From a cyanobacterium endosymbiont of Epithemia turgida isolate EtSB Lake Yunoko (GTDB lineage: Bacteria > Cyanobacteriota > Cyanobacteriia > Cyanobacteriales > Microcystaceae), in NCBI RefSeq assembly GCF_000829235.1, contig NZ_AP012549.1:2190001-2222000 (forward strand): a DNA stretch of 32,000 bases, given 5' to 3'. A program made the translations under genes and the position numbers. This document shows positions 1,958 through 27,806 of this stretch, in pieces (within the stretch, counting starts at the first letter, position 1; every line of letters begins with the position of its first letter). The notes beneath the pieces were generated by a model that was given only the letters and a program-made list of their open reading frames with translations, was not told the origin of the DNA and did not search any database.

Positions 1958-2124
1958 ACTACGTACTCCAGTAAGAGTAGTATGATTAACTCACTGTCTT
2001 TAATCGTAACATAATATTCTCTATCAGGAAACTTTTTTTATCCCTTTTGTAAAAAAAAGAATTATGGGACAATTTTTAGGATAAAAGCCTCTCAAAATAT
2101 AGGCTAGTCCATACATACACTTAA

Positions 2125-4113
2125 TTAACTTAAATAAGTATAGAGATCAAGATTTTCTTCATAATTCCGCCATAAAGCCTCAGACTCTTTTTGTGTGATT
2201 CTACCCTCTTGTACAGCCTGCTCAGTACGTTGACGAATTCGTTGGCTTAGTTTATTCGTGTCGTATTGAACATAGTTCAATACATGGGCAATTGTATCTC
2301 CTTGAACAAAATCTTCAATCTCATATCCCTTTGAATTGATAACAATATGAACTTGATTAAGATTACCAAAAAGATTGTGAAAATTCCCCATAATTTCTTG
2401 ATACGCTCCCACTAAAAATATTCCCAAATAGTAAGGTTCTTTGATAGAACATTCAGGATTAGAAAACTCTAGGGGAAATAAATTAGTATCTTTGTTCACT
2501 TTTAATGGACGAAGTGGATGCAATTCTAAAACAGGTTTGCTATTTCGCAAATTGATAAATTGGTCTATCTTCCCATCACTATCACAAGTTAAGTCAGCTA
2601 AAGTTCCTCGTTGAGTAGGTTCTTCATTTAAACGGTGAACGGGCATTATAGGAAACAATTGATTAATTGCCCAAGTATCGGGAGCAGAACGAAAAACTGA
2701 TAAATTCGCATAATAAATTGAGGACATGCTTTTCTCTAAGTTTTCAAGATCATCGGGGACACAATCTTGATGCTGAATCATGTCATAGATTTTTTTACAA
2801 CAAACCCAGTACAATTGCTCTGCCTTTGCTCTTTCTATTAAATTCAAATAACCAAAATTAAATAAACTAATAGCCTCTTCTTTAAATTGAATGGCGTCAT
2901 GATACATTTCCTGATAATTTATCGGATTAATTGACTTATAAGTTTCCCAAAGATTACGAATAATTAAATTTTCCTCTTCTTCTCGAGGAGGAGGAACTAT
3001 ATTAGACACATCATTAGTGTGAAGTATATCAAAAACCACAACGGAATGATGAGCAGTAATTGCCCTTCCACTTTCACTAATTAAAACAGGTGCCGCAACA
3101 CCAGCTTCTTCACAAGCTTCTTTAATTTCAGCAACAATATCATTAGCGTAATTTTGCATACTATAGTTTTTTGAGGCATAAGAGTTGGTTTTTGAACCTT
3201 CATAATCGACGCCTAAACCTCCTCCCACATCAAGATATTTCATGTTTGGATTTATTTTTGCCAACTGTACATAAATTTGACTTGCTTCACGCATAGCATC
3301 TTTAATAACACTGATAGAAGAAATTTGTGAGCCAATATGAAAATGAAGAAATTGCAAATAGAACAAAATATTCTTTTGTTTTAGATACTTAATTGCAGTT
3401 AAAATTTGAGGAATATCTAAGCCAAATTTAGCGCGATCACCTGTGGAATTTCCCCAACGTCCTGTCCCTTTTGTACTTAGTTTTACTCGTATTCCTAAGT
3501 TTGCTTCAATCGCTAATTGTTCACTTATTTGTATTGTTAAATAAAGTTCTTCTAATTGTTCAATCACAATAACTAGTTTGTATCCTAGACGAACAGCCAA
3601 CAAAGCGGTTCTGATATAAATGACATCTTTATAACCGTTACAAACAATGATTGAGGAATTATCGGATACACTTGAATTAGGATCTATGGAGGCTAAAGCG
3701 ATCATTAACTCTGGTTTAGAACCTGATTCTAATCCAAACTGATATGGTTTTCCATGACGAACAATTGATTCAATAATTTGACGATTTTGATGACACTTGA
3801 TAGGATAAACTCCTTGATAGTGATTAGAATAGTTGTAGTTGTTAATCGCATTCTTAAAACAATTATTTAATCGAGCTAAACGATCAGCTAATATTTCAGG
3901 AAATCTAATCAATAAAGGTAAATTGATATTTTTCTTTTGTAAAGATTTAACTAAATCAAATAGGTCTAGAGAATCGTCCTTATTTCCTCGAGGAAACACG
4001 ACCACATGACCATCAGCATTAATAGAAAAATAAGGATCTCCCCAATCATCGATTTGATACAGGTTGATACTATTTTCAATCGTCCATCTCGAAGAAATTT
4101 CTAATTTTCTCAT
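2125..4113 (-). CDS. speA: Biosynthetic arginine decarboxylase (PLP-dependent)
   Basis: Complete 662-aa ORF. The N-terminus has the SpeA-type pattern (W..E.S..LY.I..WG.PYFSIN..G.V). Also present are YPIKCNQ-like YPIKCHQNR, the HIGSQ motif (FHIGSQI), DVGGGLGVDY, EPGRA-like SESGRAI and the C-terminal GAYQEIMGNFHNLFG. Confidence 0.93.
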   Translation of the reverse strand: MRKLEISSRWTIENSINLYQIDDWGDPYFSINADGHVVVFPRGNKDDSLDLFDLVKSLQKKNINLPLLIRFPEILADRLARLNNCFKNAINNYNYSNHYQGVYPIKCHQNRQIIESIVRHGKPYQFGLESGSKPELMIALASIDPNSSVSDNSSIIVCNGYKDVIYIRTALLAVRLGYKLVIVIEQLEELYLTIQISEQLAIEANLGIRVKLSTKGTGRWGNSTGDRAKFGLDIPQILTAIKYLKQKNILFYLQFLHFHIGSQISSISVIKDAMREASQIYVQLAKINPNMKYLDVGGGLGVDYEGSKTNSYASKNYSMQNYANDIVAEIKEACEEAGVAAPVLISESGRAITAHHSVVVFDILHTNDVSNIVPPPREEEENLIIRNLWETYKSINPINYQEMYHDAIQFKEEAISLFNFGYLNLIERAKAEQLYWVCCKKIYDMIQHQDCVPDDLENLEKSMSSIYYANLSVFRSAPDTWAINQLFPIMPVHRLNEEPTQRGTLADLTCDSDGKIDQFINLRNSKPVLELHPLRPLKVNKDTNLFPLEFSNPECSIKEPYYLGIFLVGAYQEIMGNFHNLFGNLNQVHIVINSKGYEIEDFVQGDTIAHVLNYVQYDTNKLSQRIRQRTEQAVQEGRITQKESEALWRNYEENLDLYTYLS

Positions 4114-4156: not shown

Positions 4157-5017
4157 TCAACTTCGCCAAATAGCATCAGCTACTAGTGCTATATCTACTA
4201 TTTGTGCTACGTCATGAACCCTTAATATATCTGCTGATTGGGCGATTGCTCCACAGCAGGCTGCGGCAGTTCCCCAGAGTCGTTGTTTCGGGTTAATATG
4301 ACCAATAAAACGCTTACGAGAAACTCCCACCACTATAGGCTGGACTAAACGCTTAAATTCTGACAAACGCTGTAATAGTTCTAAATTTTGTGAGTAAGTT
4401 TTGGCAAAACCGATACCAGGATCAATGATGAGGTGTGATCGCTTAATGCCAGCTTTCATCGCTAAATTCAGTTGATTATCTAACCATTGAATAACTTCTT
4501 CTATTAAATCAGTATAATCCGTCAATTGTTGCATAGTTTGAGGATTACCTCTAATGTGCATTAAGATGATAGGGACTTTTAACTTAGCCACCACTGCAAA
4601 CATCTGGGAATCAAAAGTTCCTCCAGAAACATCATTTACTAAGTCTGCACCTGCTTCGATTGACACTACTAGAGCATCAGCAACTGATGCTCTAGTAGTG
4701 TCAATCGAAATAGGAATAGACGTTTCCTGACGCAGTAGTTTTATTATAGGAATAACACGATTTAATTCTTCTTCGAAAGAAATTTGTTGAGACCCTGGCC
4801 GTGTTGATTGTTCCCCAATATCGATAATATCTGCTCCTGAATTAATGAGGATTTTAGCTTGAATTAAAGCGGTTTCTAAAGTATTAAACTGGCCACCATC
4901 ACTAAAACTGTCAGGAGTTACGTTAAGAATCCCCATAATATAGGTTCTTTTTCCCCAACAAAAGGAATATTGTCTTAGTTTTAAATCAGCCATAATAGTT
5001 TTAAATACTTTCAACAT
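4157..5017 (-). CDS. folP: Dihydropteroate synthase
   Basis: 286-aa ORF with DHPS motifs GILNVTPDSFSDGG, DIGEQSTRPG, ISIDT, NDVSGG, MHIRGNPQTM, DPGIGFAKT and GVSRK. An alternative start is the ATG at 4993 (MADLKLRQ..). The frame is open but contains a 55-bp perfect palindrome (4655-4709) that adds about 3 codons between the ISIDT and AGADLVNDVSGG motifs. Confidence 0.85.
   Translation of the reverse strand: MLKVFKTIMADLKLRQYSFCWGKRTYIMGILNVTPDSFSDGGQFNTLETALIQAKILINSGADIIDIGEQSTRPGSQQISFEEELNRVIPIIKLLRQETSIPISIDTTRASVADALVVSIEAGADLVNDVSGGTFDSQMFAVVAKLKVPIILMHIRGNPQTMQQLTDYTDLIEEVIQWLDNQLNLAMKAGIKRSHLIIDPGIGFAKTYSQNLELLQRLSEFKRLVQPIVVGVSRKRFIGHINPKQRLWGTAAACCGAIAQSADILRVHDVAQIVDIALVADAIWRS
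4655..4709. repeat. Perfect palindrome inside folP (26-bp arms, 3-nt spacer)
   Basis: 4655-4680 (ttcgattgacactactagagcatcag) is the exact reverse complement of 4684-4709 (ctgatgctctagtagtgtcaatcgaa). The spacer is caa. I checked this base by base. Confidence 0.97.
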
Positions 5018-5075: not shown

Positions 5076-5801
5076 TTATTGATAATTAACAATGCGTGCA
5101 AATCCTACCGAATCTAAACTAGCTCCTCCCACTAACACGCCATCAATTTCAGGTTGAGCCATAATTTCATCAACATTAGAAGGTTTAACTGATCCTCCAT
5201 ATTGGATAGTAACTTCTTCATTTGACAACTGAGAGCGAATGATACCAATAACGCGGTTAGCTTCAGTCGCTTCACAAGTATCTCCAGTCCCAATCGCCCA
5301 AATAGGTTCATAAGCAATGACTAAATTACTTTGATTGACATTAATTAAACTTTGTTTGACTTGGTTAATAATAACAGGTTCTGTTTCTCCTCTATCCCGT
5401 TGTAATTTACTTTCCCCTACACAGAGAATGGGAATTAGTCCGTGGCGTTGGGCAGCTAGCACTCGTAGATTTACTGTTTCATTAGTTTCACCGAAATATT
5501 GACGCCGTTCACTGTGTCCAACCACCACATAATCTACTCCAAGCTCTGTCAGCATTGCACCAGATATCTCTCCTGTATAAGCTCCTTCATCTTCCCAGTG
5601 GATGTTTTGTGCTGCCAAATGAATCAACCCAGCATATAGACTTTTTGACATGACACTCAAAGCAGTAAAGGGAGCGCATAAAACTACTTCTCTTGTTCCG
5701 TTCATTTCTTCGAGATTCGATTTTGATTCTTGCAAAAACTCCAGAGCTTTCTTCTGAGTTTTGTGCATTTTCCAGTTACCCGCAATAATAATTTTTCTCA
5801 T
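5076..5801 (-). CDS. tpiA: Triosephosphate isomerase
   Basis: Complete 241-aa ORF with the motifs [30 protein letters not shown] and GGASL. Confidence 0.95.
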
Positions 5802-6433
5802 AGCTATCTCTAAAAATTAATTTCAATGTTTTTGCAGTCTTCTAGTTTAATGCCTTAAGGATATCAGAGGGAAGAGTACAATAAGATCAAAGTTTGAGAA
5901 AGGAGATAATGTCTTAAGGAACATGACTCATAATCACTTCTATCACTTTTTAAGTAAAATACTTAAAAAACTTAGGATAAAAATTAATTTATATTCTAAA
6001 TTTTTTAGAAAAAATATTGATGTTTATGATTTAACCATTATATTTAATTTCAATGAAAAAGGTTAAATATTGTTATTTTTAACTCTTTTTATTAAAATAT
6101 TTTAACTTTGCAATTAGTACATTTTATTAAATTTTTTCGGGTTTAAAATACTAAGAATTATCCATACATTAGCATAAATTTTAATAAAAAAGCTTTAATA
6201 TTTAACAAACTATCCTGATTAGAAACTAGATATTGTTACATATCTTATTTAATCTTTTAAAGATATAGTTATTTTAATAATTTTAAATATCATATTTTAG
6301 AATTTTTTTTACAATAAAAATTAGGATTAAGTTATAGAGAATATGTTACACTTATTTAATAAGACTTAAACAAAAGATAGTTAGAGCTGCAGATTATATT
6401 TTAATAGCTAAATAAGTGGTTTTATTATAAAAT

Positions 6434-6554
6434 ACTTATTCTTTACTTATTCTTTACTTATTCTTTACTTATTCTTTACTTATTCTTTACTTATTCTTTA
6501 CTTATTCTTTACTTATTCTTTACTTATTCTTTACTTATTCTTTACTTATTCTTT
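6434..6554. repeat. Tandem repeat, 11 exact copies of the 11-bp unit ACTTATTCTTT
   Basis: Counted unit by unit from 6434 to 6554 with no mismatch. It lies in an ORF-free AT-rich spacer. Confidence 0.97.
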
Positions 6555-6936
6555 GTTAATAAATACTAATATTTTTGCTAAAATAAAGATATATATTGGC
6601 AGCTATCAACGTTAGTTAAATTAAACCATATAGTATGTTTTTGTTAACCAATAATCTAAGCTCTATAAAAAAATAACAGTATTTATTTCAAAATTTATTT
6701 GACCAACAAATTGGTTTAACTTAAATAATTAAAACGCAAAATTATTCTTAAAATTTCACCACTCTTAAACAGATACTATCTGAAACAGAATACACCTAAC
6801 ATAGGTTTTAGTGCAATATGTATAGATTAAAGAAGATCTTATATATTTATTTTCAGTAATCCAAGTTTCAAGAATAACGGCTTACTAAGCCAAAAAGTTA
6901 GCAATACTTTGTTAAATCATTTTCTTTTTTTAAACT

Positions 6937-7086
6937 TTATACTCTATCTGATGTTTCCTGATAGAGTGCAGAATCGAATGGTGGAACTTCAATATTGGGA
7001 CATTCATCTTTAGTTGTACTAAAAATGTAATCAAAGCCTTCAGCGATATATTGAACTAAACTTTGCAAGATTTTATCGACACTCAT
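6937..7086 (-). CDS. Small hypothetical protein (49 aa), below the ORF-track cutoff
   Basis: The minus-strand ORF reads MSVDKILQSLVQYIAEGFDYIFSTTKDECPNIEVPPFDSALYQETSDRV*. An AAGAGG Shine-Dalgarno-like motif lies 8 nt upstream of the ATG. The ORF forms a local GC-richer island inside an otherwise ORF-free desert. I cannot assign a family from memory. Confidence 0.4.
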   Translation of the reverse strand: MSVDKILQSLVQYIAEGFDYIFSTTKDECPNIEVPPFDSALYQETSDRV

Positions 7087-7792
7087 AACATCTGCCTCTT
7101 AACTCTCATGAACTTTATAAAAAACTTCACTTGCTGAGGGTTTTTATTTTTTAGAGTTAAAAAAAGCTTTTTTCATCTCTTCTGTTCTCGATTATCTTAA
7201 GAATATTTCAACCTTTGAACAAGTTTGTAATAAATTTTAAAATGACAAGAATCCGCTTTGTATTTTCGTTAACTTTTATAAACTAAAATATTAGCTAGTA
7301 TTAACTTCTAGAGAATTCAGTATAACCATAATGATAGGTTTTCAAACAAAAAACTATTTTTTCACTAAATCAAATTAATCAATTTAATTTACCAATATAT
7401 TTAAAAAATATTGGAATTTTAACTTAAGTTTTTTAAAATAAAAAAACTTAAAGATCAAGGAATTTCAATTGCTATTATGATAAAATTAACGTATTCTATC
7501 GTTGATAGAGCTATTTTGAGAATTTAGTCACTATTAAGATGGTTTATAGATATAGTGAGTGAGTTAGATTTATGAGAACGTACTATGATGTGCTTTCAAT
7601 ACTATCATTCTTGTCCTAATACTGATAAGATTTTATCTCACAATTATCGATAATTTTTAGAGATTAAAGTTATAACTAAGATGGATATTATCAATTACTA
7701 TTTTAAAATAGTGATACTTTTAAAGTAAAACTTAATCAACAAAAGTGAAGTATGTATTCAAGCTATTAAAATGCTATGTGTAGCTGTCATGC

Positions 7793-7820
7793 AACCAGAT
7801 TTAAAAGTTTAAATCTGGTT
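7793..7820. repeat. Perfect palindrome (13-bp arms, 2-nt centre)
   Basis: aaccagatttaaa-ag-tttaaatctggtt. Confidence 0.9.
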
Positions 7821-7919
7821 TAATTTGATATAATTTACTTTAATTAAATTAAAGTACTTAGGAGTACTGTCCTTAATTCAATACACTCGATTGTCTATGT
7901 TTTTCTAAGAGCAAAGATT

Positions 7920-9245
7920 GACTTTATTCTAAATGATTACAGTTTGCTCATAGGTTTGTAGAATCTAACTATGATTGCTTGTTACACCGGAGAGAAACTT
8001 GCTCATCATCAAGCGAGTTTTGAACTGTTCATATGTCATCTCCCAGAATCTTTTGGATATTTAATTGCCATGGGAATTACTCAAAATTTAAATCTTTTAG
8101 AAAATCTACACTTTAGTGAAAAATCCTAAAAAATAGGATTAAAACCTGATTTTTAATCCTATTTTTTAGGATTTTTCATTAGTTCTAGCTTCAGGAGGCT
8201 TTACGGGGAAAGTTTGGGCAGTACATGAAGGAACAACGGTATTTTCCCATGAACCTCTATTGCCGACAGAAGTCTCTTTCTTGCAAGCCCAACTTATAGA
8301 AACCTACTTTTTAAACACCCTCAACTATTAAAATTAGATTGCTACTAAAGTCGGTAGAATAGGCGATGTAGCAAGTAAAAACGCTTTTTTATTAGAAAAA
8401 CCTGAGGTGTGTTCAGTTCAGTCCTTAAGGTTCGATATGAGCGGCTAGAGTAGCTTTAGCGGGAGGGTTGGGGGTCACCTTTAAATAGGTTAGCAGCTCT
8501 AAAATTAGGGTGCCAACCTAGTGTAATCATAGCTTATTCTTTAATCATGGCTATCAAAGCTGTATCAGGGAGTGAAGATGAAGCTTTATATACCTTTAGG
8601 CGTTATTTTTCAGGAGCTACTTTGCTACTTAATACCTAAGATGCAGTAGCTGCAGCAGAAAGCTTAGTGGACAAAGTTAATAAAAGAATCCTCAATGTCA
8701 CAGAAGTTCGCATAGATTCGGGAGATTTAGTTACCTTATCCCAAAAAGTGCGATTTCTATTACCCAACATTAAGATCTTTGCCAGTGGCGATCTTGATGA
8801 ATTGGGAATTGCTCGTCTCAAAGAAGCAGGTGCCTCTATTGATAGTTGTAGATTCGGAACCAACCTTGTAACCGGCAAACCTCTCAAGGGAGTCTATAAA
8901 TTAATGGAAATTGATGGAGCTATTACTATGGCAAAATCTAGCAGTAAGGCCACCTATCCAGGGCAAAAACAGATTTTTGGGACCTACATACAATGAGGGT
9001 ATAGTCAAAGGTGATTGCTTAGGGTTAACCACTGTCTCAATTGAGAGAGCGGAAACCAACTTTTACAGTTGGTCATAACAGAAGGAAAATCCTTGTTTCA
9101 ACCTGAATCTTTAGAGACTATTCGTCAACGAACTCAAAGGTCGGTTGAGAGTCTCCTCTCTGCAACTCATCATCTTAGGCAACCCACTTAAATTGAGGTT
9201 AAAATCTCCAATGAACTCGAATCGTTGCGTCAATCTTTAGGTTAA
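7920..9245 (+). pseudogene. pncB: Nicotinate phosphoribosyltransferase pseudogene (multiple stops and frameshifts)
   Basis: Collinear NAPRTase fragments appear in shifting frames:
- NLTMIACYTGEKLAHHQASFELFICHLPESFGYLIAMGITQNLNLLE (from 7962).
- GFTGKVWAVHEGTTVFSHEPLLPTEVSFLQAQLIETYFLNTLNY* (8196-).
- MAIKAVSGSEDEALYTFRRYFSGATLLLNT* (8548-).
- ORF 8667-8996 (..VRIDSGDLVTLSQKVRFLLPNIKIFASGDLDE..FGTNLVTG..VYKLMEI..TYPGQKQIF).
- The C-terminal ..ITEGKSLFQPESLETIRQRTQRSVESL..RQPT*IEVKISNELESLRQSLG*, ending at 9245. Confidence 0.88.
8116..8177. repeat. Perfect palindrome inside the pncB pseudogene (28-bp arms, 6-nt loop)
   Basis: 8116-8143 (tgaaaaatcctaaaaaataggattaaaa) is the exact reverse complement of 8150-8177 (ttttaatcctattttttaggatttttca). 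The loop is cctgat. Confidence 0.97.
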
Positions 9246-10563: not shown

Positions 10564-12252
10564 ATGAAAATTGCTATTGCTCAACTGAATCCAACCATTG
10601 GAGATTTAGCAAATAACGCTAAAAAAATTGTAGAAGCAGCTCAATTTGCTGCTCATCAAAATGCTAGGCTTTTACTAACTCCTGAATTATCTTTATGTGG
10701 ATATCCTCCCCGCGACTTACTACTTGATCCTAGTTTTATTAAATCCCTTTCTATTGAATTGCAAAGTTTAGCTCAGAAATCTCCCTCTCAATTAGCTATT
10801 TTAGTAGGAACAGTTACTCCTAATCATGATGCTCATATTAAAGGAGAAAAGCCTCTTTTTAATAGTATTGCGTGGTTAGAAAATAGTCAGATAAAAAAGG
10901 TATTTCATAAAAGACTTTTACCAACGTATGATGTCTTTGATGAAGATCGCTATTTTGAACCAGGGCGACAAAATAATTATTTCGAATTATTACCTGATTC
11001 CCAATCATCTACTCCTTTAAAAATTGGGATTACAATCTGTGAAGATTTATGGAATGATGAAAAGTTTTGGGGGGGTAAATATTATGAGTATAATCCCCTA
11101 GAAGATTTGCTTAAATTTGGGGTTGATTTTATTTTAAATTTATCTGCTTCTCCCTATAATGTCGGCAAGCAGAAGATACGAGAAAAAATGGTAAAATATA
11201 GCAGTAAACACTATCAAACTCCTATTATTTATGTCAATCAAATTGGTGGTAATGATGATTTAATTTTTGATGGAAATAGTTTTGCTGTAAACAAAAAAAG
11301 TGAAATTGTATTACGATTAAAGGCATTTGAGGAAAATATTGATTTTATCAATTTACAAATAAAAGATAAAGATCTTTCTTTGTCAAAAATAAATGATGAA
11401 ATAAAAATAGAGGAAGAAGAAATTTGGCTAGCCCTAGTTTTAGGGGTTAAAGACTATGTGAAAAAATGTGGGTTTTCTAAGGTCGTTTTAGGATTAAGTG
11501 GAGGAATTGACTCTGCGTTAGTTGCTGCGATTGCTACAGAAGCGTTAGGAAAAGAAAATGTATTAGCATTACTTATGCCATCTCCTTATAGTTCTCACCA
11601 TTCTATTATTGATGCTGAAGCTTTAGTTAAAAATTTAGGTATTAACAGTTATAAGTTACCTATTGGGGATATTATGGAGTCTTATAAGATTCTATTAGAC
11701 CCCTTATTTGAAGGAACAAAACTTGGAATTGCTGAGGAAAATATTCAATCTCGCATTCGGGGTAATTTATTGATGGCTATTGCTAATAAATTTGGACATC
11801 TTCTGCTATCTACTGGGAATAAATCAGAAATGGCGGTAGGTTATTGCACTTTGTATGGTGATATGAATGGAGGGTTAGCTGTTATTTCAGATGTGCCTAA
11901 AACTCGTGTATTTTCCCTTTGCCGTTGGCTAAATTGTGACAGAGAAATAATACCCCATAATATTTTAATTAAATCCCCTAGTGCGGAATTAAAACCAAAT
12001 CAAACCGATCAAGACTCTTTACCCTCTTATGAAGTACTTGATGAGATTTTAGAGGGATTAATTCATCGTCATCAATCAGTTAGTCAAATTCATGAAGCAG
12101 GATTTGATTTAGCCACTATCGATAAAGTAATAAAATTAGTTGCCAGTGCTGAATTTAAACGAAAACAGGCTTCTCCAGGATTAAGAATAACTGATAGAGC
12201 ATTTGGAACAGGTTGGAAAATGCCTATTGCAAATCGTTGGAAAATTAATTAA
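10564..12252 (+). CDS. nadE: Glutamine-dependent NAD+ synthetase
   Basis: Complete 562-aa ORF. It has an N-terminal CN-hydrolase/nitrilase domain (MKIAIAQLNP.., TPELSLCGYPPRDL, ICEDLW) and a C-terminal NAD synthetase domain with the PP-loop GLSGGIDS, followed by STGNKSE and EFKRKQA. Confidence 0.95.
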   Translation: MKIAIAQLNPTIGDLANNAKKIVEAAQFAAHQNARLLLTPELSLCGYPPRDLLLDPSFIKSLSIELQSLAQKSPSQLAILVGTVTPNHDAHIKGEKPLFNSIAWLENSQIKKVFHKRLLPTYDVFDEDRYFEPGRQNNYFELLPDSQSSTPLKIGITICEDLWNDEKFWGGKYYEYNPLEDLLKFGVDFILNLSASPYNVGKQKIREKMVKYSSKHYQTPIIYVNQIGGNDDLIFDGNSFAVNKKSEIVLRLKAFEENIDFINLQIKDKDLSLSKINDEIKIEEEEIWLALVLGVKDYVKKCGFSKVVLGLSGGIDSALVAAIATEALGKENVLALLMPSPYSSHHSIIDAEALVKNLGINSYKLPIGDIMESYKILLDPLFEGTKLGIAEENIQSRIRGNLLMAIANKFGHLLLSTGNKSEMAVGYCTLYGDMNGGLAVISDVPKTRVFSLCRWLNCDREIIPHNILIKSPSAELKPNQTDQDSLPSYEVLDEILEGLIHRHQSVSQIHEAGFDLATIDKVIKLVASAEFKRKQASPGLRITDRAFGTGWKMPIANRWKIN

Positions 12253-12289
12253 TACTAGCTAAAAGGACAATACTTTTATAGTATTTAAA

Positions 12290-14711
12290 ATAAATTGAGG
12301 TAAAATTGAATCATGATCCATGGTTATTGAGATATCTGAAAAGAATTAGACCATGTAGATCCGCGTTCTTCCTAGTTATGAATTTAAGGAATAGTTGGTA
12401 AATTATCCCCGTAGATAGAAGAATGTACGGTCACATTTGCGATTGTTATGCTATCGTCGAATAATTAGGTGACTAATTTCATATAAGGAATTTCCCCGCA
12501 TCCTGCACAAGCATCCGAAAACTCAAACAAGAGTTCTTACATCTGTTGATGACTAATTTTATTTAGTTGTAAAGTATGTGATTTAAGATTAACAAGAGCG
12601 AAAAAATAGTCCAAATTTTTTCGCTTTTACTCCTGTATTGGTAATTGAGAAGTCATATTTATTGCTTCCAACTTTGCTTGAAATTTATTTTTTGTAGTAC
12701 AAACATTTACATAAAACCCACACCTACTACAGTCTTCCGCAACGACTTGGCTCGTGAATTTCAATTAAGTTTTTTAAAGTCTAAACACTTTGCATAAGTA
12801 GTTTTGAAGACTTGGAGTACATTGGTAAATGTTTGTTTCTTATACACTTTATACTGAATGACCGCATAAGGATACACTAAAACACATTTATTACCTTAAA
12901 CACAGACATTGAGGTCTCGTACAGATATTTAATGGATAACCTTCTGGTTTTTCTATTTTATTTTACCATATTTTTTAAATACATCACGGGTAAATACTAA
13001 TGTGGCATTGAAAATCAGACATTCAAAGTTAGTTGCGTCGTCATCTATCGTTATCGAAACCGCTACTTGATGAAAATAATCTAATGCCGAGTCAACCACT
13101 TTCATATTCATTTGTACGATTTATTTACTTTTTTTACTATAAGTCTTGTAGATGTGTTTTAAAATTGGCTCTCTAGCTTTTTCTCTAGTTAATCCTTTTA
13201 GTTATTTATTGATAATTTATTTTTGGATAGACTAAAAAAATAATATTATATTAGATTTAATCTATAGTGATTATTTAGTATAAATATTAAGCTTTCAACT
13301 ACTCATTCTAAAATATAAATTTATTTATAAGAAAAATCATTAGTTATAAATAATAAAGTTAGCGTTGTTACCTGGTTTAATTAAACTAGAAAAGAAATTT
13401 TTGGAGTAAAAATATCAGGGGTTTGTTCGATGATTTTACCCAGGTTTTCGTTTATATTAACAATCATATCTAAGTATCAACTATAGCAGATAGCTATATT
13501 ATAATCAGTTCTTATAAAAAAGGTTAGACTAGCATGAATAAAACTATCTTTAGTTATAGGATTAAAGTGGTTTTTGCAATCACTTAATACCATATTATTA
13601 CAAATTTTTTTAACCATTAAAGAGATGATTTTTGTGAAATAAATTATATGCCGTTCTCCAATAACTATTTTAATACTTTAAATTAATATCTAAATCTAAA
13701 TAGAGTTTTTAACGCTTTAAAGATAACATATAAATATAAAAGTTATCCAAATAATTTATTTTAAAATTGAGTTTATTCTTGCTATTTTTAATAAAAATTT
13801 AACGAGCTTTATTGTTAAAAATAGACAATACTATTTAATTCTAACAATCCCAATTTTTCCATTAGTTTAATAAAAAATTCAATGCTTTATAAGTGTTTTT
13901 ACAAAACTCATCAAAATAATAACTTTTTCTGCTTTAGAATTACCATAATAGTCAAACAAATGATATTGTTAGCCCGTCAGTTAAGCAAACTTATACATTA
14001 CTTTTTCTAAGATTTTGTGATAAACTTTAGAAAACTCTGGGGGTTCCCTCGTTTGTAAGTAAACATCAGAGTTTTGTAGTAGTTCTTCAACTCATCGGGT
14101 AATCAGGAGTTAACACTCATTCACGATGGGCAATCATCCATTGATCTTTAATCAATGATCGCAAGACACTATCCTCTAATAACTCCACTTTTTGCACTTA
14201 ATAGGCAGTTCGAAACCCATCAAAAAATATATAAAACCCCACAAAAACTGGTGGCTGTAGCTATTACAGCTAAATCTTGCACTTCTTGCACAGATGCAGA
14301 ACTTAACAATACCAACCTAGTCCTACGGACAGCCATCACATTACTATGATCTGATCACCAAAAATAGATAACGTCTGGGCAACTAGAGAGTCTGCTGCGA
14401 CACGGAGTACCAATTGACATGATTTTTCTTATTAAATTGTAGCTATCAGAAATTATCAATAATAAATTCTAAAATAATGTCAATGGAGTGTTAATACTCT
14501 TGTTTACAATGCTTTATTAATAATCTCTGCTATTCCTCTCTCACTTTATATTTAGACGACGGAAGGTACAGTTATCCGGAGGTTTGATCCGCCCATTCTT
14601 CTCTAGGTGAGGAAAAGTAATAGGATAGATAGCAATCACTTCATTGACGTGACGAGTCACTCTAACGACCGCTTTGTTTCCACTCAAAGTGACATAGACT
14701 TAAGTGTTCAT
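12290..14711 (-). pseudogene. nifJ: Pyruvate:ferredoxin/flavodoxin oxidoreductase pseudogene (heavily decayed, 3' part deleted)
   Basis: Collinear PFOR signatures appear on the minus strand through many stops and frameshifts:
- N-terminus, about 14711-14550: MNT*VYVTLSGNKAVVRVTRHVNEVIAIYPITFPHLEKNG.
- About 14385-14205: LSIFGDQIIVM..FFDGFRTAY*VQKVELL.
- About 12935-12850: ISVRDLNVCV*GNKCVLVYPYAVIQYKVY, a decayed CxxCxxCxxxCP ferredoxin motif.
- About 12540-12390: ELLFEFSDACAGCGEIPYMKLVT*LFDDSITIANVTVHSSIYGDNLPTIP.
- About 12375-12335: EERGSTWSNSFQ. Confidence 0.88.
12597..12625. repeat. Perfect inverted repeat (11-bp arms, 7-nt loop) inside the nifJ pseudogene
   Basis: agcgaaaaaat-agtccaa-attttttcgct. 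Confidence 0.9.
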
Positions 14712-15410
14712 AGTGTTCTGGTGCTTGTTTTTTGAGTCCGACAATAAGTTGATTAGAGGGAAAAATTCCTGTAACGAATACGTAACACTTTGTGGTTGAT
14801 AAGTAAAAATAACTACTCTTTTAAAGGTAAGTCAAAGAACTTTAAGGATAGTTAATTATTGAATTAAATTAATGTAAAGTCTACAGTAAGCCTTCTAGGA
14901 CTAAAGTCTCTTATATTTTCATAGTCGTGACTTCAGTAATTATGCCTCTACTCTTAGAATCCAACATAATCAAAGAGTTTAAACAATTTATTATCTTTTT
15001 TTAAGACGTTTAATTTAATAAATATTTTGACGTAAATAAAAAATTATAAATAAAAAGTATCATTTTTCAATGACTTTCAGCAAAGAATACATGTAATTGT
15101 GAGCAAAAAAATTGGACTAATTAGTCTACTAACTATCCGTACCAACCTTGAATATTATTTTAACAAATAAATTGAAATTAAAGTTATCTAAATTTTGTCT
15201 ATCATCAGAGTAATCGCAAAAACGGTTAGTATATTTTTCTGTTTTTTATTGTCTTAAAACAATAGTTCAGAATGTATTAAGTAACCTGGCGGTTGCTATA
15301 TTATTTAGCATAGGCTAGAAATTTGACAAATTGGATCCTCTTTTATTCTAAAACAACTACTTCTACAGAATTATTTAAGAACCCTGGGAAAAAATTGATT
15401 TAGATTTCAC

Positions 15411-18053
15411 TTAAACAATATCTTCTTCTGATTGTTTTTTACAAAATTCTAAGTTATTATTATGACAATCAACAATAACTTGATCACCACAAACAAATCT
15501 ATTTTCTAATATTCTTGTCGCCATAGGATTCTCTAATTCTCGTTGAATAGCCCGTTTTAAAGGACGCGCTCCATAGACTGGATCATAACTAGAACTAACA
15601 ATATAGTCTAGGGCTGAGTCTGTTAATTCTATCCTAATTTTTTGTTCTTTAAGTAATTTTTCAATTCGTTTTATTTGCAGACACACAATCTGCCGTAACT
15701 CTGTTTTATTAAGAGTATGAAAAATAATCAGATCATCGATACGGTTCAAAAATTCGGGACGGAAATGTTTATGCAATGATTCCAAAACCTTTTTGCGCAT
15801 TTCCTCATAATCTGTTTCACCTTGTGTAAGGTTAAGGATATGGCTACTTCCTATGTTACTAGTCATTACAATAATAGCGTTACGGAAATCTATCACTCGT
15901 CCTTGGGAATCAGTAATACGTCCATCATCAAAGACTTGCAAAAGAATATTAAAGACATCTACATGGGCTTTTTCCACTTCATCCAACAACACTACACAAT
16001 AGGGACGGCGACGGACTGCTTCAGACAATTGTCCCCCTTTCTCATACCCCACATATCCAGGGGGCGCACCAACTAATCGAGAGACTGCCTGTTTTTCCAT
16101 ATACTCAGACATATCAATGCGAACCATTGCTTCTTCTGAGTCGAAGAGAAAAGCGGCTAATGCCCTAGCTAATTCAGTTTTTCCTACCCCTGTAGGACCC
16201 ATAAACAAGAATGAACCAATAGGACGAGAAGGATCTTTCATTCCAGCTCTAGCACGACGAATAGCAGCAGCAACAGCAGCTATAGCCTCTTGTTGTCCAA
16301 TAACCTTTTCGTGTAGATGTACTTCAAGTTTAAGAAGTTTTTGACGTTCGGTCGCTAACAAATTATTGGTAGGAATACCTGTCCATCCAGCTACAATTTC
16401 AGCAATATCAGACTCGGAGACTTGTTCTCGGAGTAAGGTTTTGCCCTGCGCTTGAATATCAAGAAGTCGGGTTTCTTTAGCTTCCCGTTGCTGTTGAACC
16501 ACTTCTAGTTTACCGTATTTTAATTGAGCGGCTTTGTTCAGTTCGTAAGCCCTTTCTGCTTGTTCGACTTGTAGACGTAGCTGTTCTTCTTCTTCTTTAA
16601 GAGTATTAATATCATTAAGTATCTGCTTTTCTAACTGCCATTGGGACGCAAGTTGTTCGTGAGTAGATTCTAAATTTTTTATTTCTTTTTGAATGCCTTC
16701 TAAACGTTCTTTGGAAGCGCAATCAATGATTAACATTCCTCGTTGTTCTTCTCCCTCTAAGGAAAGTTTTTCCATTTGTAACTGCATTAAACGACGATCA
16801 ACATCTTCTAGTTCAACAGGTTTAGAGGTGATTTCCATTTTTAACTTAGCTGCTGCTTCATCTACAAGGTCAATGGCTTTGTCGGGTAAAAAGCGATCAG
16901 TAATGTAACGATGGGAAAGAGTTGCTGCAGCTACTAATGCTGAGTCAGTAATTTTGACCCCATGATGGACTTCATAGCGTTCTTTGAGTCCTCGTAGAAT
17001 GGAAATGGTATCTTCCACACTCGGTTGTTTAACATACACTTGCTGAAAACGCCGTTCTAGAGCAGGATCTTGTTCAATATGCTTCCGGTACTCATCAAGA
17101 GTTGTTGCACCGATACAGCGCAATTCTCCGCGGGCTAACATGGGTTTTAAGAGGTTACCTGCATCCATGCCTCCTCCTTCGCGAGAACCGGCTCCAACAA
17201 CGGTATGAAGTTCATCGATAAAGAGTATGATTTCTCCCCCGGATTGGGTGACTTCTCGCATTACGGTTCGTAGACGTTCTTCAAATTCCCCTCGATATTT
17301 CGCCCCCGCGATAAGACTTCCCATATCTAGAGAGATTAATTGACGACTTTTGAGAGACTCAGGAACGTCCCCGTTAATAATACGTTGGGCTAACCCTTCG
17401 GCAATTGCAGTTTTTCCGACTCCTGGTTCTCCAATTAAGACGGGGTTATTTTTTGATCTACGGGAAAGAACCTGAATCACACGACGAATTTCTTCATCTC
17501 GGCCAATTACAGGGTCAAGTTTTCCTTTTGCCGCTTGTTCAGTAAGATCTCGCCCATATTTTACGAGAGCTTCATAATTATCTTCTTGGTTAGGTTCGGT
17601 AACTTTTTGTGACCCTCGAAGTGCCCTTATCTCTTTCTCTAAGTCTTGGGGGTCAAATTGAAAACTCTTCAAGCAACGTCGTCCAATGCGTTCATCTTCA
17701 GCAAATCCCATCAACAGATGTTCAACGGAAATATATTTATCTTGCCAACTTTCACGAGAAGCTTCCGCACGATCTAACATTAAATCTAAGCCCTGTCCTA
17801 AGTAAAGTTGATCGACAGTAATTACTTTAGATTGACGGTTGCCAAAAACTTCTAACTGTTGTTGTAATCGGAAAACATCTAAGTTAGATCTTTCTAAAAT
17901 ACGAATAGCTAAGCCTTTTTCCTGTTCTAACAAGGCTAAAACAACGTGTTCCACTTCTAAGGTTTGATTTCTAAAACGCCGGGCTACGTCTTGTGATCTG
18001 ACAATCGCGTCCCAGGCTTGTTCTGTAAACTTACTTGAATCAGTTGGCTGCAT
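15411..18053 (-). CDS. clpB: ATP-dependent chaperone/disaggregase ClpB
   Basis: The ORF is open to 18104. The ATG at 18053 gives [18 protein letters not shown].., the usual cyanobacterial ClpB N-terminus. There are two AAA+ modules with Walker A motifs GEPGVGKT and GPTGVGKT. A long coiled-coil middle domain and the ClpB signatures [11 protein letters not shown] and [10 protein letters not shown] are present. Confidence 0.95.
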
Positions 18054-19604: not shown

Positions 19605-20496
19605 AAGAGATCTCCTCGAACACCTTTTCAATGGTTAATTTTATCTATTGACCTAACTTTACTCTTTTTTTCTCCTTGCTTATACCAATTTATCTTTAGT
19701 TATTGCAAGGCTTCTAAGAATTTGGGGTGAGTCAATTAAATTTAATAAATCAAGTTCAATTATAGACATTAGTTACCCTGACATATACTGTCATCATAGT
19801 GAAAAAAGTTTTTCAAAGTCAGGTTTTGACAGCTAACTATACTGAGATATCTCAAACATTAGTATAGATTAAATAATCTTGTGAAGTTACACAGAATGGC
19901 AAACTTACATTACTCAAGAATATATAAATTTAGATTATTTCTACAAAGTAGAATTTTATTAACGAGTTTCACTAATTTTCACTTCATCTCTTGTTGACCA
20001 AAATTAATTGATTAAAGTTTATAATTAATAAAAAATCTTTAAAAATTTATTTAGTAATATATCTTCAGTCTCTAAATAATTTATTTATTAAACCTTGCGT
20101 TAAATCAAAAATAGATTTATGTCTATTTGTGTTACCTTAAATTTAATTCAAAGCAGCTCACCACATTCGTTTATGATCTAATGTAGTAGATTAAATTTTA
20201 AATACTATTTCACATAATTGAATGCTAATTATTGAAGCAATTTAATTAAATTTTTGAAAGCTAAATGTATATAATGACGAGATTAATGACATATTTCTAT
20301 CAAAGTAAGTTTTATTAAACTTATTACTATTATTTACAAGTTAGTGATGAATAGAATATTAGCATTCTCATATCAGGCATAAACTTTATAAAATAAAAAA
20401 AAATAACTATATCAATAAATATTTTTTAAAAAAAAATTAACCATGATATTTAAAATTTCAATATTTTGATTAATTACAAGCAATTGTAGTAATTTT

Positions 20497-20553
20497 AATT
20501 TATATTATTTTTACATAAAAATGGTATTTTTTTATGTAAAAATAATATAAATT
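20497..20553. repeat. Perfect palindrome in a gene desert (25-bp arms, 7-nt loop)
   Basis: 20497-20521 (aatttatattatttttacataaaaa) is the exact reverse complement of 20529-20553 (tttttatgtaaaaataatataaatt). The loop is tggtatt. Confidence 0.95.
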
Positions 20554-22119
20554 TAAAAAAATCACAGTAGTATTTTTATGTTTAATAGGAATTATATAGA
20601 TTATCAAAGATTTTATTAAGATCAATATCTAGTTTTATGTCTATACCACCAAACCTTAATAAGGGTGATTTATGATATAAAGCTACTGCTTTCTTTTCTC
20701 TCTATTTCTGTATAGTTAATATTTAAAAATATATTTTTGAACTAAAATTTAAATAAATTAGCTAAAACAATTAACACTTTATAGATTTTTGTTGAAGCTG
20801 TATTTCACTAAAAAATATATCAAAAATAATTTAAATTAAATTTATTAAAAATAGTATAAATACTCCTATAATTAAGTTTATTTTTTTAAAAAAATTACTT
20901 CAAATAATGCTCATTTATTTGACTAAAGTGAACCGGATAACGACTATACTCAAAAGAAAATCTAAAACAATGACTGTAGCTAATTTAGGCAAAGTATCTA
21001 TAATACCCCGTTGGGTATAGGTAATATTCTCATTAATAGCTACTACCATAATTAAGTCTAAATCACACATAATTAAGCTAAATTAACTGGTAATTATTTT
21101 ATTAATTACTGACAATTATTTTTGGATAAAAACTATTGACATTATTGATCAATAAGGCAATAAGGTAAGCATTATTTTTTCCTAGAAATCGCATTATATT
21201 GATACTATTGAACAATATAAATACAAATTATTACTAATGCTAATTAATTTAATTTATTTATGTTTATTTTAATTTAAAATTAATTTTTTAATAAAAAATA
21301 TTTAAAAAATATACTATTCACTAGTATTTTATCGCTGAATGTTTTTAAAAATTTTAATAACAAGTTATTTAAGATTTATTAAACTTAATAAGTTATGATT
21401 AGCCTCTTTATAAGAATTGCTATTTTTAATATTTAGTATATTTATTGAAAATTTAAGTTACCTATACAGTCTATTGTCCGCAATCAGCCTATTTTTTGTA
21501 GTACACATATAATTTTAGCACTATTTTAAGTATTTTTATGTTGTATATTATTACTTTTACTTTTACGTAAAATTTAATTTATATCAAAAAATTTGTATAT
21601 TTATATAACAAAATAAAAAAAATATTGCATTAAAATTGGTAGCTCTTTTTGAAGATTTTTCTCAATAAGAGTAGTTATTAGTTTAACTATTATAATTATT
21701 TACTACTTTACTCCTACACGGTTAAAGAGATTTACTTATATATTTTTATAAAACGGTAAGTTTTTATTGACTTATAATTATTGTTGTATTTAGGTAAAAT
21801 TGTCATAAAAACATAATTTATTACTCTGAGTTAAAACAATTTTTATAATTGCATTATTAATTATAAAACTTTATTATTTAGCATATATAATAGTATATTT
21901 AATTATATTTGCAAGTATTAATTGTTATTTAATATTTAGATTTTATTTAGGTTTAGTAGTCTTACTAAGATGATATGGTTAAGTACTTAATATAGAACAT
22001 AAAATGACTATAAATAAATTTTATTAGATTATTTAGCTACTCTTGTTTTAGTAAATTTTACTCTCTTCTTTTTGTTGTATAGGGTTATATAAAAACAAAT
22101 TTAATTAGGAGTATAACTC

Positions 22120-22406
22120 ATGGATAAACCGACTACTGTTATTTATTCAATTACAGAAGTTCTTAAGTGTATTGACAATAAGTTAGATGGAAATTAAAAG
22201 TAAGTTAATCACAAGTTTAAATTTGATCTAAAAAATGTTATGGATTTAAAGTTGGAAGTAATAACCTAGACTAAGAAATTTAAGAGAATAGATAAGTGAC
22301 TATAAAAAGTACAAAAAACTTAATAAATTAAGTTTGGGCGTTAATTATTTTTTTGTTCTGTGCCATTCTTACTGCTACTAGATTATTTTTCAAGGACAAT
22401 TGTTAA
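22120..22406 (+). pseudogene. Possible decayed small coiled-coil/C-terminal TM protein gene
   Basis: An AGGAG motif lies 9 nt upstream of the ATG at 22120. The reading MDKPTTVIYSITEVLKCIDNKLDGN* is followed by stop-riddled K/L/E-rich reading. In another frame there is a clean hydrophobic tail, VWALIIFLFCAILTATRLFFKDNC*, ending at 22406. This is pattern only, with no family assignment. Confidence 0.3.
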
Positions 22407-22572
22407 CCAACAAAGCGTGATCTGATATTTCAGATTATCTTTAATATAAGATTCAAAGGTGACATTATCAATGATAATAAATAAAATATAGAGAAAAAAA
22501 CTTATTTTAAATAAATTAACTTGTTGACTTGGAGTTTTAAAAAAACAATAGTAACTCTTTCTGATTCTTTCT

Positions 22573-24705
22573 ATGATGATGTCTCAATCTAACTCTCTTG
22601 AACAGTCCTTAAAACATTTTTTTGGTTATGATAGGTTTCGTCCTGGACAAGCAAATATTATCGAAGAAGCCCTAGAAAATCATGACTTATTAGTAATTAT
22701 GCCGACAGGAGGAGGGAAGTCCCTTTGTTTTCAACTGCCTGCATTACTTAAACCTGGTCTAAGTGTGGTAGTCTCCCCCTTAATTGCTCTAATGCAAGAT
22801 CAAGTAGACACTCTGTTAGATAATGGCATTGGGGCAACTTTTCTCAATAGTAGTCTCAGTTCTCAAGAAATACGGTCTCGTGAACAAGCACTTGTTCAGG
22901 GGAAAATAAAACTGCTGTATGTCGCACCAGAAAGATTATTAAATGAGAAATTTGCCCCTTTTTTAGGTTTTATTTCTCAAAAAATTGGGATTTCTGCTTT
23001 CGCAATTGATGAAGCTCATTGTGTGTCTGAATGGGGGCATGATTTCCGTCCTGAATACCGACAACTAAAACAACTTCGTAAATGCTATCCTCAAGTTCCT
23101 ATGTTTGCTTTAACTGCAACAGCTACCAAGCGGGTACAAGAAGATATCATCAAGCAGTTAGGATTAAGACAGCCAAGAATTCATATTACTAGTTTTAATC
23201 GTCCGAACCTTTACTACGATGTAAAACCTAAAAAACCTAACAACTATAACACATTATTGTCCTATATTCGTGAACAAAAAGGGACAGGAATTGTATATTG
23301 TCTCAGTCGTCGTTCAGTAGATGAAATTGCCTTTTATTTACAAAATGATGGAATTGATGCTTTACCCTATCATGCAGGAATGGATGATCAGACAAGACGC
23401 TTAAATCAACACCGTTTTATTCGAGATAATGTACAAGTGATAGTAGCAACTATTGCCTTTGGAATGGGCATTAATAAACCTGATGTTCGCTTCGTTATTC
23501 ATTATGATTTACCTCGTAATTTAGAGGGTTATTATCAAGAGTCAGGACGGGCAGGAAGGGATGGAGAACCAGCCAAGTGTATCTTGTTTTTTAGTTTATC
23601 TGACGTCAAAAGAATTGAATATATAATTAATCAAAAAACTTCTTATCAAGAACGAAAAGTATCCCGTCAGCAGTTACGTCAAGTAGTAGACTATGCTGAA
23701 GGTGTTGACTGTCGTCGCACCATTGTTTTACGATATTTTGGGGAAAGATTTTTAGGAAACTGTGGTAACTGTGACAATTGTCTTAACCCAAAACCTATAG
23801 AAGACTGGACAATTGAAGCACAAAAATTTCTTTCTTGTGTTATACGTTGTAATGAAAAATTTGGCATGACTCATATTATCGATGTCTTACGGGGATCGAA
23901 AAAGCGTAAAATAGAACAATATGGTCATCATCTTTTGTCAACTTATAGTATTGGAAAAGACAAAAGTTTAGCTGAATGGAAAATGCTCGGACGATCTTTA
24001 ATTCACCAAAATTTATTAGATGAAACTAGCGATGGATTTTCTGTATTAAAACTTAACGAACGGAGTTGGGAAATTTTAAAAAAACAGAGAAAGGTAAATA
24101 TTCCAGTTAGTCAAAAATCATCCTTAAAAATTTTAATAGATAATAAATATGGGGCTACTGAAACTGAGTTTCTCTTTGATCGATTAAGAGATTTAAGGAA
24201 GCAGTTAGCAGACAATAGTAATATAGCTCCATATGTCATTTTTTCTGATTTAAGTTTAAAATTGATGGCACAATTAAAACCCCAAAATTTAAAAGAATTC
24301 TCTAGAATTTCCGGAGTAACTGACTTCAAAACAAATCAATATGGAGAAAAATTTTTATCAGAAATTATGTTATTTGTTCGAGAACAAGCTTCTCTAAATC
24401 CTTTAGCAAGTTCAAGTAATATGATAACTTTACAGCTATACCAACAAGGATTAGAGCCGGTGGAAATTGCTAAGATACGAGGGTTGAAAGAAAGTACAAT
24501 TTATTCTCACCTCTCGGAATTAATTGAAGAAAGACAACCAGTAGATATCAATAAATTGGTTTTTCCAGTCAAACAAGATATTATTATTCAAGCCATTAAG
24601 AAAATTGGGGATGGCACCCTAACTCCTATTAAAGAATATTTAGGAGATCATTACAGCTACAGTGAGATTAAATTAGTTAGAGCTTGGTATCGAAGTAAAC
24701 AATAA
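22573..24705 (+). CDS. recQ: ATP-dependent DNA helicase RecQ
   Basis: Complete 710-aa ORF. Helicase motifs are [68 protein letters not shown] and [10 protein letters not shown]. Also present are the Zn-binding CRR..CGNCDNC, an HRDC region ([13 protein letters not shown]) and a C-terminal HTH-like extension. Confidence 0.95.
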
Positions 24706-27120: not shown

Positions 27121-27552
27121 ATGCGGATATTGCACACCATGCTGCGGGTTAATAACCTGAACAAGTCACTCAAGTTTTATTGCGATATTTTAGGGATGAA
27201 ATTGCTGCGCCAGAAAGATTATCCAAACGGCAAGTTTACTCTAGCCTTTGTAGGATATGGAAATGAGTCTGAAAAGACGGTCATTGAATTAACCTATAAT
27301 TGGGGTGTGGATTCCTACGAGCTCGGAAATGCCTACGGACATATTGCCCTAGGAGTTAATGATATCTATCAAACCTGCGAAAAAATCCGAGAACTTGGAG
27401 GAAATATTACCCGCGAACCAGGACCAATGAAACATGGTTCAACAGTCATTGCTTTTGTTGAAGATCCCACTGGTTATAAAATTGAGTTAATTCAATTAAG
27501 TTCCCACAGTTCAACTCAAAAAGAAACCTCTTTAGGAGATACTAACCCTTAA
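27121..27552 (+). CDS. gloA: Lactoylglutathione lyase (glyoxalase I)
   Basis: The ORF is open from 27079. The ATG at 27121 is preceded by AAGGAG (27103-27108) and gives [13 protein letters not shown]... The Ni/Zn GloA pattern is present: [21 protein letters not shown] and IELIQ. Confidence 0.92.
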
Positions 27553-27641
27553 TAACAATTGATAAATCGTTTTAGGTTTTTGCGTAAGGTGGGCAATACC
27601 ACCCCTCAGGTCAGGTGAGGGAGTTTCTTGTATTGCTTGTT

Positions 27642-27725
27642 GTCCGGATACTTTTTTTGATATTTTCGTTATAACTCTTAGTGTTTGTTCTCCGGACTCA
27701 CTCCCCACCTTATAAGTGGGTTTTT
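27642..27725 (+). ncRNA. Candidate small structured RNA or 3'-UTR element with a Yfr1-like motif
   Basis: A 7-bp stem, GTCCGGA (27642-27648) with TCCGGAC (27691-27697), is followed by a single-stranded C-rich tract TCACTCCCCAC. That tract contains ACTCCCCAC, 8 of 9 identical to the ACUCCUCAC core of the cyanobacterial Yfr1 motif as I recall it. A terminator-like hairpin plus TTTTT follows. The candidate is a GC-rich island in AT-rich surroundings. Confidence 0.3.
27704..27725 (+). terminator. Rho-independent-terminator-like hairpin downstream of gloA
   Basis: CCCAC-CTTATAA-GTGGG followed by TTTTT. The 5-bp stem is short. Its 5' half can alternatively pair with TAAGGTGGG at 27585-27593. Confidence 0.35.
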
Positions 27726-27806
27726 ACAACTGGATCTAATATTATTAATATAGTTTCCACGATAAAAAACAAAACTTTTAGTTTTTGTCAACCATTAGAC
27801 ACTTGA

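Follow-up and report, generated by a model that had tools for sequence, protein, structure and literature searches.

The model of quasipalindrome-associated template-switch mutation (QPM), in which one arm of an imperfect inverted repeat serves as template for the other, reportedly goes back to Ripley (1982). Its hallmarks are a switch to the nascent or sister strand in the course of replication, a strand bias, reportedly towards the leading strand, and suppression by exonucleases. In Escherichia coli, where the Lovett laboratory has used thyA and the lacZ alleles QP5/QP6 as reporters of QPM, quasipalindromes are converted into perfect or more perfect inverted repeats through a template switch to the nascent strand (PMC7202029). 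In yeast, coding sequences are likewise altered by template switching (Abraham & Hazkani-Covo 2021, PMC8604942), a process that has been inferred by comparative genomics in great apes and humans as well (PMC7954356) and that both creates and maintains RNA hairpins (Monttinen & Loytynoja 2022, PMC8794818). Here, we analysed a 32-kb stretch of the genome of the nitrogen-fixing cyanobacterium endosymbiont of the diatom Epithemia turgida (the spheroid body or diazoplast, EtSB), to which we refer in its entirety as the window, and in it a long perfect palindrome within folP, the gene for dihydropteroate synthase (DHPS). The palindrome is very probably the footprint of one QPM that took place in replication, and neither a functional element nor a mobile insertion.

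On the forward strand, window positions 4655-4680 (TTCGATTGACACTACTAGAGCATCAG) and 4684-4709 (CTGATGCTCTAGTAGTGTCAATCGAA) are exact reverse complements of each other, separated by the spacer CAA, and a direct check thus bears out the pair of 26-bp arms described in the initial annotation of this region. When imperfect flanking pairs are counted as well, the inverted repeat extends to 38-nt arms with 87% complementarity. We simulated 30 first-order Markov versions of the window and searched them for perfect arms with a spacer of at most 10 nt; because the longest arm obtained was only 9-13 nt, the folP arms lie far beyond chance, and a chance origin, which the initial annotation had already dismissed for a sequence of this length, cannot explain them. 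The folP palindrome is not the sole very long perfect hairpin in the window, as two AT-rich intergenic ones are similar in length.

The palindrome lies within an uninterrupted open reading frame (ORF) that spans 4157..5017 on the minus strand and whose annotated start is at 4993. The encoded protein matches the Pfam family Pterin_bind with E=3.3e-84 over the entire profile (positions 1-244 of 244) and finds DHPS structures in the PDB with matches down to 1e-69; the NCBI entry for this protein from the E. turgida endosymbiont is 100% identical to it. Both the ORF and its translation confirmed that the folP frame remains open across the palindrome, which had been read as ISIDTTRAS-VA-DALVVSIE; the native arm codes for (I)SIDTTRAS, including the conserved DHPS SxDT motif.

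To compare this state with that of its relatives, we gathered folP DNA in a close set, consisting of the endosymbiont of Epithemia adnata (L082/L086) together with contigs L084 and L085 (Joint Genome Institute (JGI) and Logan), and in a wider set, consisting of the endosymbionts of Epithemia clementina, Rhopalodia gibberula (L002) and Rhopalodia gibba, the marine-type uoEpiScrs1, and free-living Rippkaea PCC 8801 and others. We aligned 10-12 orthologues as nucleotides and 22 as proteins; over ~15 kb, the DNA of the E. adnata endosymbiont shares 97.5% identity with the window. On the ancestral-type coding strand, the sequence is TTCGATTG ACACTACTAG AGCATCAG ttg CTGATGCT G CAATCGAA, a quasipalindrome made of an 8-bp outer and an 8-bp inner stem with an asymmetric internal loop of 10 nt versus 1 nt between them (L084, L001). 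In EtSB, the lone G has given way to CTAGTAGTGT, which is the reverse complement of ACACTACTAG at 10/10 positions and constitutes the sole difference within the 55 bp. A random 10-mer would match the opposite loop exactly with a probability of ~1e-6. The net effect is a gain of 9 nt in frame, turning GCT-GCA-ATC-GAA (AAIE) into GCT-CTA-GTA-GTG-TCA-ATC-GAA (ALVVSIE), so that the new nucleotides supply codons L108-V109-V110 and change the following alanine to S111.

The pairing rose from 16 interrupted positions in the ancestor to 26/26 unbroken ones in EtSB, and since 16 of the 26 paired positions were complementary beforehand, the change is the correction of an existing quasipalindrome and not a duplication de novo. 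This refines the initial annotation, which had proposed an in-frame inverted duplication, produced by template switching or hairpin priming, that overwrote native sequence and added three codons to a native first arm carrying ISIDT. Orthologue DNA supports this interpretation throughout, the native status of the first arm included, but with the difference that a single nucleotide (the G) was overwritten and only 10 nt were copied, instead of a 26-bp duplication arising at once. In the protein alignment, all other sequences read ..SVAxA---AIEAGAD.. where EtSB has ..SVADALVVSIEAGAD.., and the three extra residues are unique to it. The insertion is absent from the endosymbionts of E. adnata, E. 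clementina, R. gibberula and R. gibba, from uoEpiScrs1, from free-living Rippkaea and from other relatives, and is thus specific to the E. turgida endosymbiont.

These before and after states suggest the following course of events. While the coding strand was being made, its nascent 3' end (..CTGATGCT) would fold back onto AGCATCAG, pairing either inside the nascent strand or across the fork; the polymerase would then copy ACACTACTAG as CTAGTAGTGT, after which the nascent strand would re-anneal to its true template via the outer 8-bp stem CAATCGAA. The opposite correction, of the short side onto the long one, would delete 9 nt and abolish the catalytic SIDTTR motif, and therefore only the insertion outcome could presumably survive selection.

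The quasipalindrome itself is a by-product of the coding sequence, conserved codons accounting for the ancestral complementarity. Of its 16 positions, counted as outer plus inner, Rippkaea has 5+5 paired and the Rhopalodia symbionts 6+8; the count reaches 7+8 for the E. adnata symbiont and 8+8 for L084 and EcSB, so that the pairing tightened gradually toward the closest relatives. The insertion event itself is younger than the divergence of EtSB and the E. adnata symbiont. The persistence of perfect arms is a poor guide to how recent it was, because only ~0.17 substitutions are expected in 55 bp on the EtSB branch (probability of none ~0.84). Scans of metagenome contigs for the derived and the ancestral junction gave 0 matches each in a collection without such samples, and are uninformative on population frequency, because the ancestral junction, although known from the JGI contig L084, was not recovered either.

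The same alignments bear on two other origins. If the palindrome were ancestral, with 9 nt deleted in other lineages, the proneness of perfect palindromes to deletion could be invoked, but identical and independent 9-nt deletions would be needed in every other spheroid-body lineage as well as in the free-living outgroups, and the shorter form of the affected protein segment, 12 residues, is universal in other diverse DHPS. The initial annotation had pointed to free-living orthologues as the place where an ancestral palindrome should be seen; it is absent there, and parsimony on the available phylogenetic spread refutes this polarity, to which we assign a negligible probability.

A small mobile palindromic element inserted in frame, of the type of the Rickettsia palindromic elements (RPEs) or of a cyanobacterial miniature inverted-repeat transposable element, has a precedent in that palindromic elements can enter genes in frame in some reduced genomes. 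RPEs, which are mobile and dispersed repeats about 100-150 bp long, resemble the EtSB case in placing in-frame palindromic DNA, which adds residues, in a conserved gene of a reduced intracellular genome. In EtSB, however, one arm is the gene's own catalytic-motif sequence, and the sole new DNA amounts to 10 nt that are the reverse complement of adjoining native sequence. No further copy of the palindrome arm was found in the window at up to 3 mismatches, and among 81 loci compared, a search that covered those loci and not the whole genome, the 55-mer matched only Logan contig L081, from the same strain. The templated 10-nt copy and the lack of further copies in the loci compared effectively refute a mobile-element origin, leaving it with next to no probability.

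We then considered what the insertion does to the protein, using 270 DHPS sequences, of which 120 are close relatives and 150 represent clusters at 50% identity. In 269/270 of these sequences, DT and GA are separated by 12 residues, and in EtSB only by 15, which extends to a broad sample the contrast drawn in the initial annotation with E. coli and mycobacterial sequences. Alignments to DHPS structures (6pz2, 1tws) place a 3-residue gap exactly at LVV. An AlphaFold2 (AF2) model of EtSB FolP retains the TIM barrel (predicted template modelling score 0.88) and lengthens the helix at residues 102-111 to 102-114, with the local predicted distance difference score (pLDDT) reduced to 80/76 from 95/90 in a no-insertion control, the E. 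adnata protein. The modelling, suggested at the outset, thus indicates that the insertion would add about one helical turn at the end of α3 nearest strand β4 of the DHPS TIM barrel.

The insertion is accompanied by further departures from the DHPS consensus. At codon 61, in the GGxSTRPG loop, EtSB carries a G61E change in a column where the 270 DHPS have G (254), A (14) or E (EtSB only), and an EtSB-specific 12-nt in-frame deletion leaves the G231..R238 loop with 6 residues versus the usual 9-10 among the DHPS compared. EtSB FolP lacks two conserved DHPS features, namely Gly/Ala at the second GGxSTRPG position and the 12-residue DT..GA segment. Along the EtSB branch, folP acquired 3 nonsynonymous point changes and 2 indels in 279 codons, compared with 2 nonsynonymous changes and 0 indels in the 905 codons of tpiA and speA taken jointly; 5/7 EtSB-unique protein-changing events thus fall in folP, which makes up 24% of the codons compared (binomial P=0.0099). 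These comparisons point to relaxed constraint on folP in EtSB, which most likely helped the insertion to be tolerated.

The folate pathway of these symbionts provides a possible setting for such relaxation. A 2026 comparative study reported that all rhopalodiacean endosymbionts lack PabAa, which is required for the synthesis of para-aminobenzoic acid, while retaining the downstream folate enzymes and an Slr0642-type folate transporter, and its orthologue table lists folK and folC as present in EtSB (PMC12903740). There is, then, another loss in the pathway, as the initial annotation had proposed looking for. Given the loss of PabAa and the presence of a folate transporter, partial redundancy of FolP is plausible; such redundancy could explain why lesions are tolerated, and is no proof of a dead enzyme.

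At the level of RNA, the 95-nt mRNA stretch at window 4635-4729 is predicted to fold with -54.6 kcal/mol (z=-10.7), versus -26.6 kcal/mol (z=-3.15 against shuffles) for the matching 86-nt ancestral-type stretch, and the 75-nt hairpin stretch folded as DNA gives -30.6 kcal/mol. A perfect RNA stem of 26 bp is long enough to be a substrate for RNase III or an obstacle to ribosomes, and the hairpin in folP mRNA may, judging from its stem length, slow ribosomes or attract RNase III. The great stability of this stretch, the preserved reading frame and the fact that the ancestral-type stretch was already more stable than its shuffles would all suit a selected hairpin that regulates folP through mRNA stability, translational pausing or attenuation, or else an enzyme improved by LVV. 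The perfect stem is, however, confined to one lineage, and its ancestral complementarity needs no explanation beyond conserved codons. A terminator scan called no intrinsic terminator at 4655-4709 on either strand, the flanks contain no T-run or U-tract on either strand, and an Rfam search of the hairpin matched no family; we accordingly rejected its identity as a terminator or as a known RNA family, and the hairpin is not a recognisable regulatory element. Moreover, a helix length that is invariant in 269/270 DHPS suggests that the insertion is neutral at best, and other unusual lesions have accumulated in the same gene. A selected function is therefore very unlikely, and we return to the QPM reading below.

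If the palindrome arose by template switching, related events might be visible elsewhere in the clade. We scanned 4.9 kb (tpiA, folP, speA and flanks) in nine sequences for lineage-unique clusters of changes, which yielded four clusters among the four closest lineages. Two of these four are inverted copies of nearby sequence, both within the same ~30 nt of folP. The scan scored the EtSB-specific 10 nt at 4663..4672 as a lineage-unique cluster having an inverted copy nearby, and in L085 (SRR26831658) it is five clustered substitutions that convert ATCAGTTGCTGATGCTGC into ATCATTTACTAAGTCTGC. All five complement GCAGACTTAGTAAATGAT, which lies 13 nt downstream, and raise the pairing from 13/18 to 18/18; in line with this, a repeat search detected, at L085:1348-1398, a perfect inverted repeat of 20 nt (spacer 11 nt) that is not present in L084. 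The L085 protein changes from SVADA to SFTKS, and the lineage-unique folP changes of L085 number 8 nonsynonymous versus 1 synonymous. The L085 cluster is a second, independent template-switch event at the same spot of folP in a sister lineage.

Hairpin arms also change together outside folP. The intergenic hairpin at 8117-8178, within an ORF-free stretch of ~2.8 kb, has perfect 28-bp arms with a 6-nt spacer in EtSB, and its orthologue in the E. adnata endosymbiont (L086 ~7000-7075) has 32-bp arms that are likewise perfect. The only differences between these hairpins are a paired substitution (C/G versus A/T) and a paired 5-nt indel, AATAG/CTATT; the arms thus evolve in concert, as described for hairpin-maintaining template switching (PMC8794818). 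We also screened 11 indels, each of 5-200 nt, that distinguish EtSB from the E. adnata endosymbiont (~15 kb) for inverted or direct copies nearby; besides the folP insertion and the paired hairpin indel, none fits template switching, the 12-nt folP deletion included. A perfect AT-rich hairpin with 25-bp arms and a 7-nt spacer is also found in a non-coding stretch at 20497-20553.

Several points tell against this interpretation or narrow it. When folP is set against its neighbours, the nonsynonymous:synonymous contrast by itself falls short of significance (Fisher P=0.21), the argument for relaxed constraint stands on few events, and both folP indels preserve the frame, which is consistent with continued selection for a working protein; AF2, for its part, is silent on the activity of the altered enzyme. 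Intrastrand and cross-fork switching are not distinguishable from the product, which is all that is visible. In addition, phi29 polymerase can itself switch templates, and chimeras of multiple displacement amplification (MDA) typically have inverted junctions. The genome of the sister spheroid body RgSB was produced from DNA subjected to phi29 whole-genome amplification (REPLI-g), with chimeras mentioned (PMC5638926).

An artefact of sequencing or assembly, in which the inverted copy stems from phi29 MDA or the assembler while the real folP retains the ancestral 12-residue segment, would share with the EtSB palindrome the inverted copying of adjoining sequence through polymerase strand switching. 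This concern, voiced in the initial annotation, is weakened by contig L081, a Logan assembly of the separate SRA run SRR29904087, which matches the window at 100% identity over 4,535 nt, including the 55-mer, and encodes the same protein; given such identity, it could derive from the same strain or even from the same DNA preparation. A typical MDA chimera has a single junction, whereas the EtSB sequence calls for two precise switches with an in-frame return to the original template. Comparable changes have also occurred in other lineages, sampled in other datasets (L085, and the paired hairpin changes relative to the E. adnata endosymbiont). For an in-frame event with two switches that is seen in a second run and mirrored in the clade, a biological origin is much more likely, and an artefact is correspondingly unlikely.

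The features of the folP locus are collected in Table 1.

Table 1. Features of the folP locus of EtSB, in window coordinates; sequences are given on the coding strand.
Feature	Position	Strand	Basis or occurrence
folP (DHPS) coding sequence (CDS), intact, 278 aa	4157..4993	-	ORF list, Pfam, protein identity
Junction of EtSB-specific 12-nt in-frame deletion; loses L/V-Q-Q-N after FIGHI	4295..4296	-	Orthologue alignments
Ancestral outer-stem half CAATCGAA, pairs with TTCGATTG	4655..4662	-	8/8 in all freshwater spheroid-body lineages
Newly templated 10 nt CTAGTAGTGT, replacing one ancestral G	4663..4672	-	EtSB only (window and L081)
Ancestral inner-stem half CTGATGCT, pairs with AGCATCAG	4673..4680	-	8/8 in L084 and L001, 7/8 in E. 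adnata endosymbiont
Spacer/hairpin loop, TTG (CAA on forward strand)	4681..4683	-	
Native palindrome arm TTCGATTG-ACACTACTAG-AGCATCAG	4684..4709	-	(Near-)identical in 9/9 other spheroid-body-lineage sequences
Donor segment ACACTACTAG, template of the inverted copy	4692..4701	-	Its reverse complement is the EtSB-specific 10 nt
Codon 61 GAA (Glu), GGA (Gly) in every relative; DIGGQSTRPG loop	4811..4813	-	EtSB-unique G>A, CDS nt 182

Elsewhere in the window, a perfect 11-nt tandem repeat of TACTTATTCTT at 6433-6554 is present in 11.1 copies and exceeds its counterpart in the E. adnata endosymbiont by ~101 nt; contig L081 terminates at this array. A 1,384-nt EtSB segment at ~12350-13738 is absent from the orthologous site of the E. 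adnata endosymbiont and may be an insertion, a remnant of an insertion sequence or the result of a deletion in the other lineage. On the minus strand, 1737-1933 holds the classic tRNA-Leu intron of cyanobacteria, a group I intron (Rfam RF00028, 88.6 bits) between exon sequence that resembles tRNA-Leu(UAA); its split tRNA was not called by ARAGORN. Long stretches without ORFs of at least 80 aa extend over 5801-8636, 12252-15411, 19631-22573 and 27552-29283, consistent with the 225 pseudogenes reported for the EtSB genome. In uoEpiScrs1 (L004), the region orthologous to ~2057-3257, containing speA, gives a very poor alignment to other spheroid-body genomes, and speA may have been degraded or replaced in uoEpiScrs1.

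Taken as a QPM, the EtSB palindrome places a helical turn in an enzyme whose helix length is otherwise fixed in 269/270 DHPS, and illustrates how a single neutral replication error can yield multi-residue changes or codon insertions in endosymbiont genes without selection. Adaptive or parallel evolution could wrongly be read into the second event, at the same site in a sister lineage, and for annotation and phylogenetics, clustered differences near inverted repeats are best counted as single events. The folP gene of the E. turgida diazoplast is also a candidate for early loss of function, which bears on the dependence of nitrogen-fixing proto-organelles on their hosts for folate. A broader and more doubtful conjecture, which we advance only speculatively, is that the α3 stretch of folP might be a recurrent template-switch hotspot in diazoplasts, that EtSB FolP might stand at the start of decay toward host-supplied folate, and that switching might be a significant, hitherto unrecognised driver of protein-length change and palindrome maintenance in organelle-like endosymbionts, perhaps enhanced by the loss of single-stranded DNA exonucleases or hairpin nucleases.

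The mechanism as such is already known, and it is the EtSB instance, a clean natural example, that is new. As in the QPM of E. coli, an imperfect inverted repeat was perfected in one step by copying of the opposite arm, and the result is a multi-nucleotide change, including an indel, templated by adjacent sequence. The E. coli events are reversions of laboratory reporters, whereas the one in EtSB affected a natural endosymbiont gene and became fixed in evolution, and with a copied tract of 10 nt and final arms of 26 bp it is longer than the 18-bp reporter quasipalindrome. With the cases from yeast, apes and RNA genes, EtSB shares polarised clusters of mutations that are inverted copies of adjoining sequence, as well as the homogenisation of arms; as in the other comparative-genomics cases, the protein is changed without an adaptive cause and events recur at one site. 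The yeast cases are multinucleotide substitutions affecting up to five residues, in contrast to the 3-codon insertion into a length-constant helix found here, in a bacterial endosymbiont with genome reduction under way. What EtSB adds to these systems is a codon insertion in a length-invariant helix, a second hit at the same spot, and co-occurring lesions whose pathway context suggests weakening selection, in an unusually clean one-step case of template switching of which the before and after states are both kept in living relatives.

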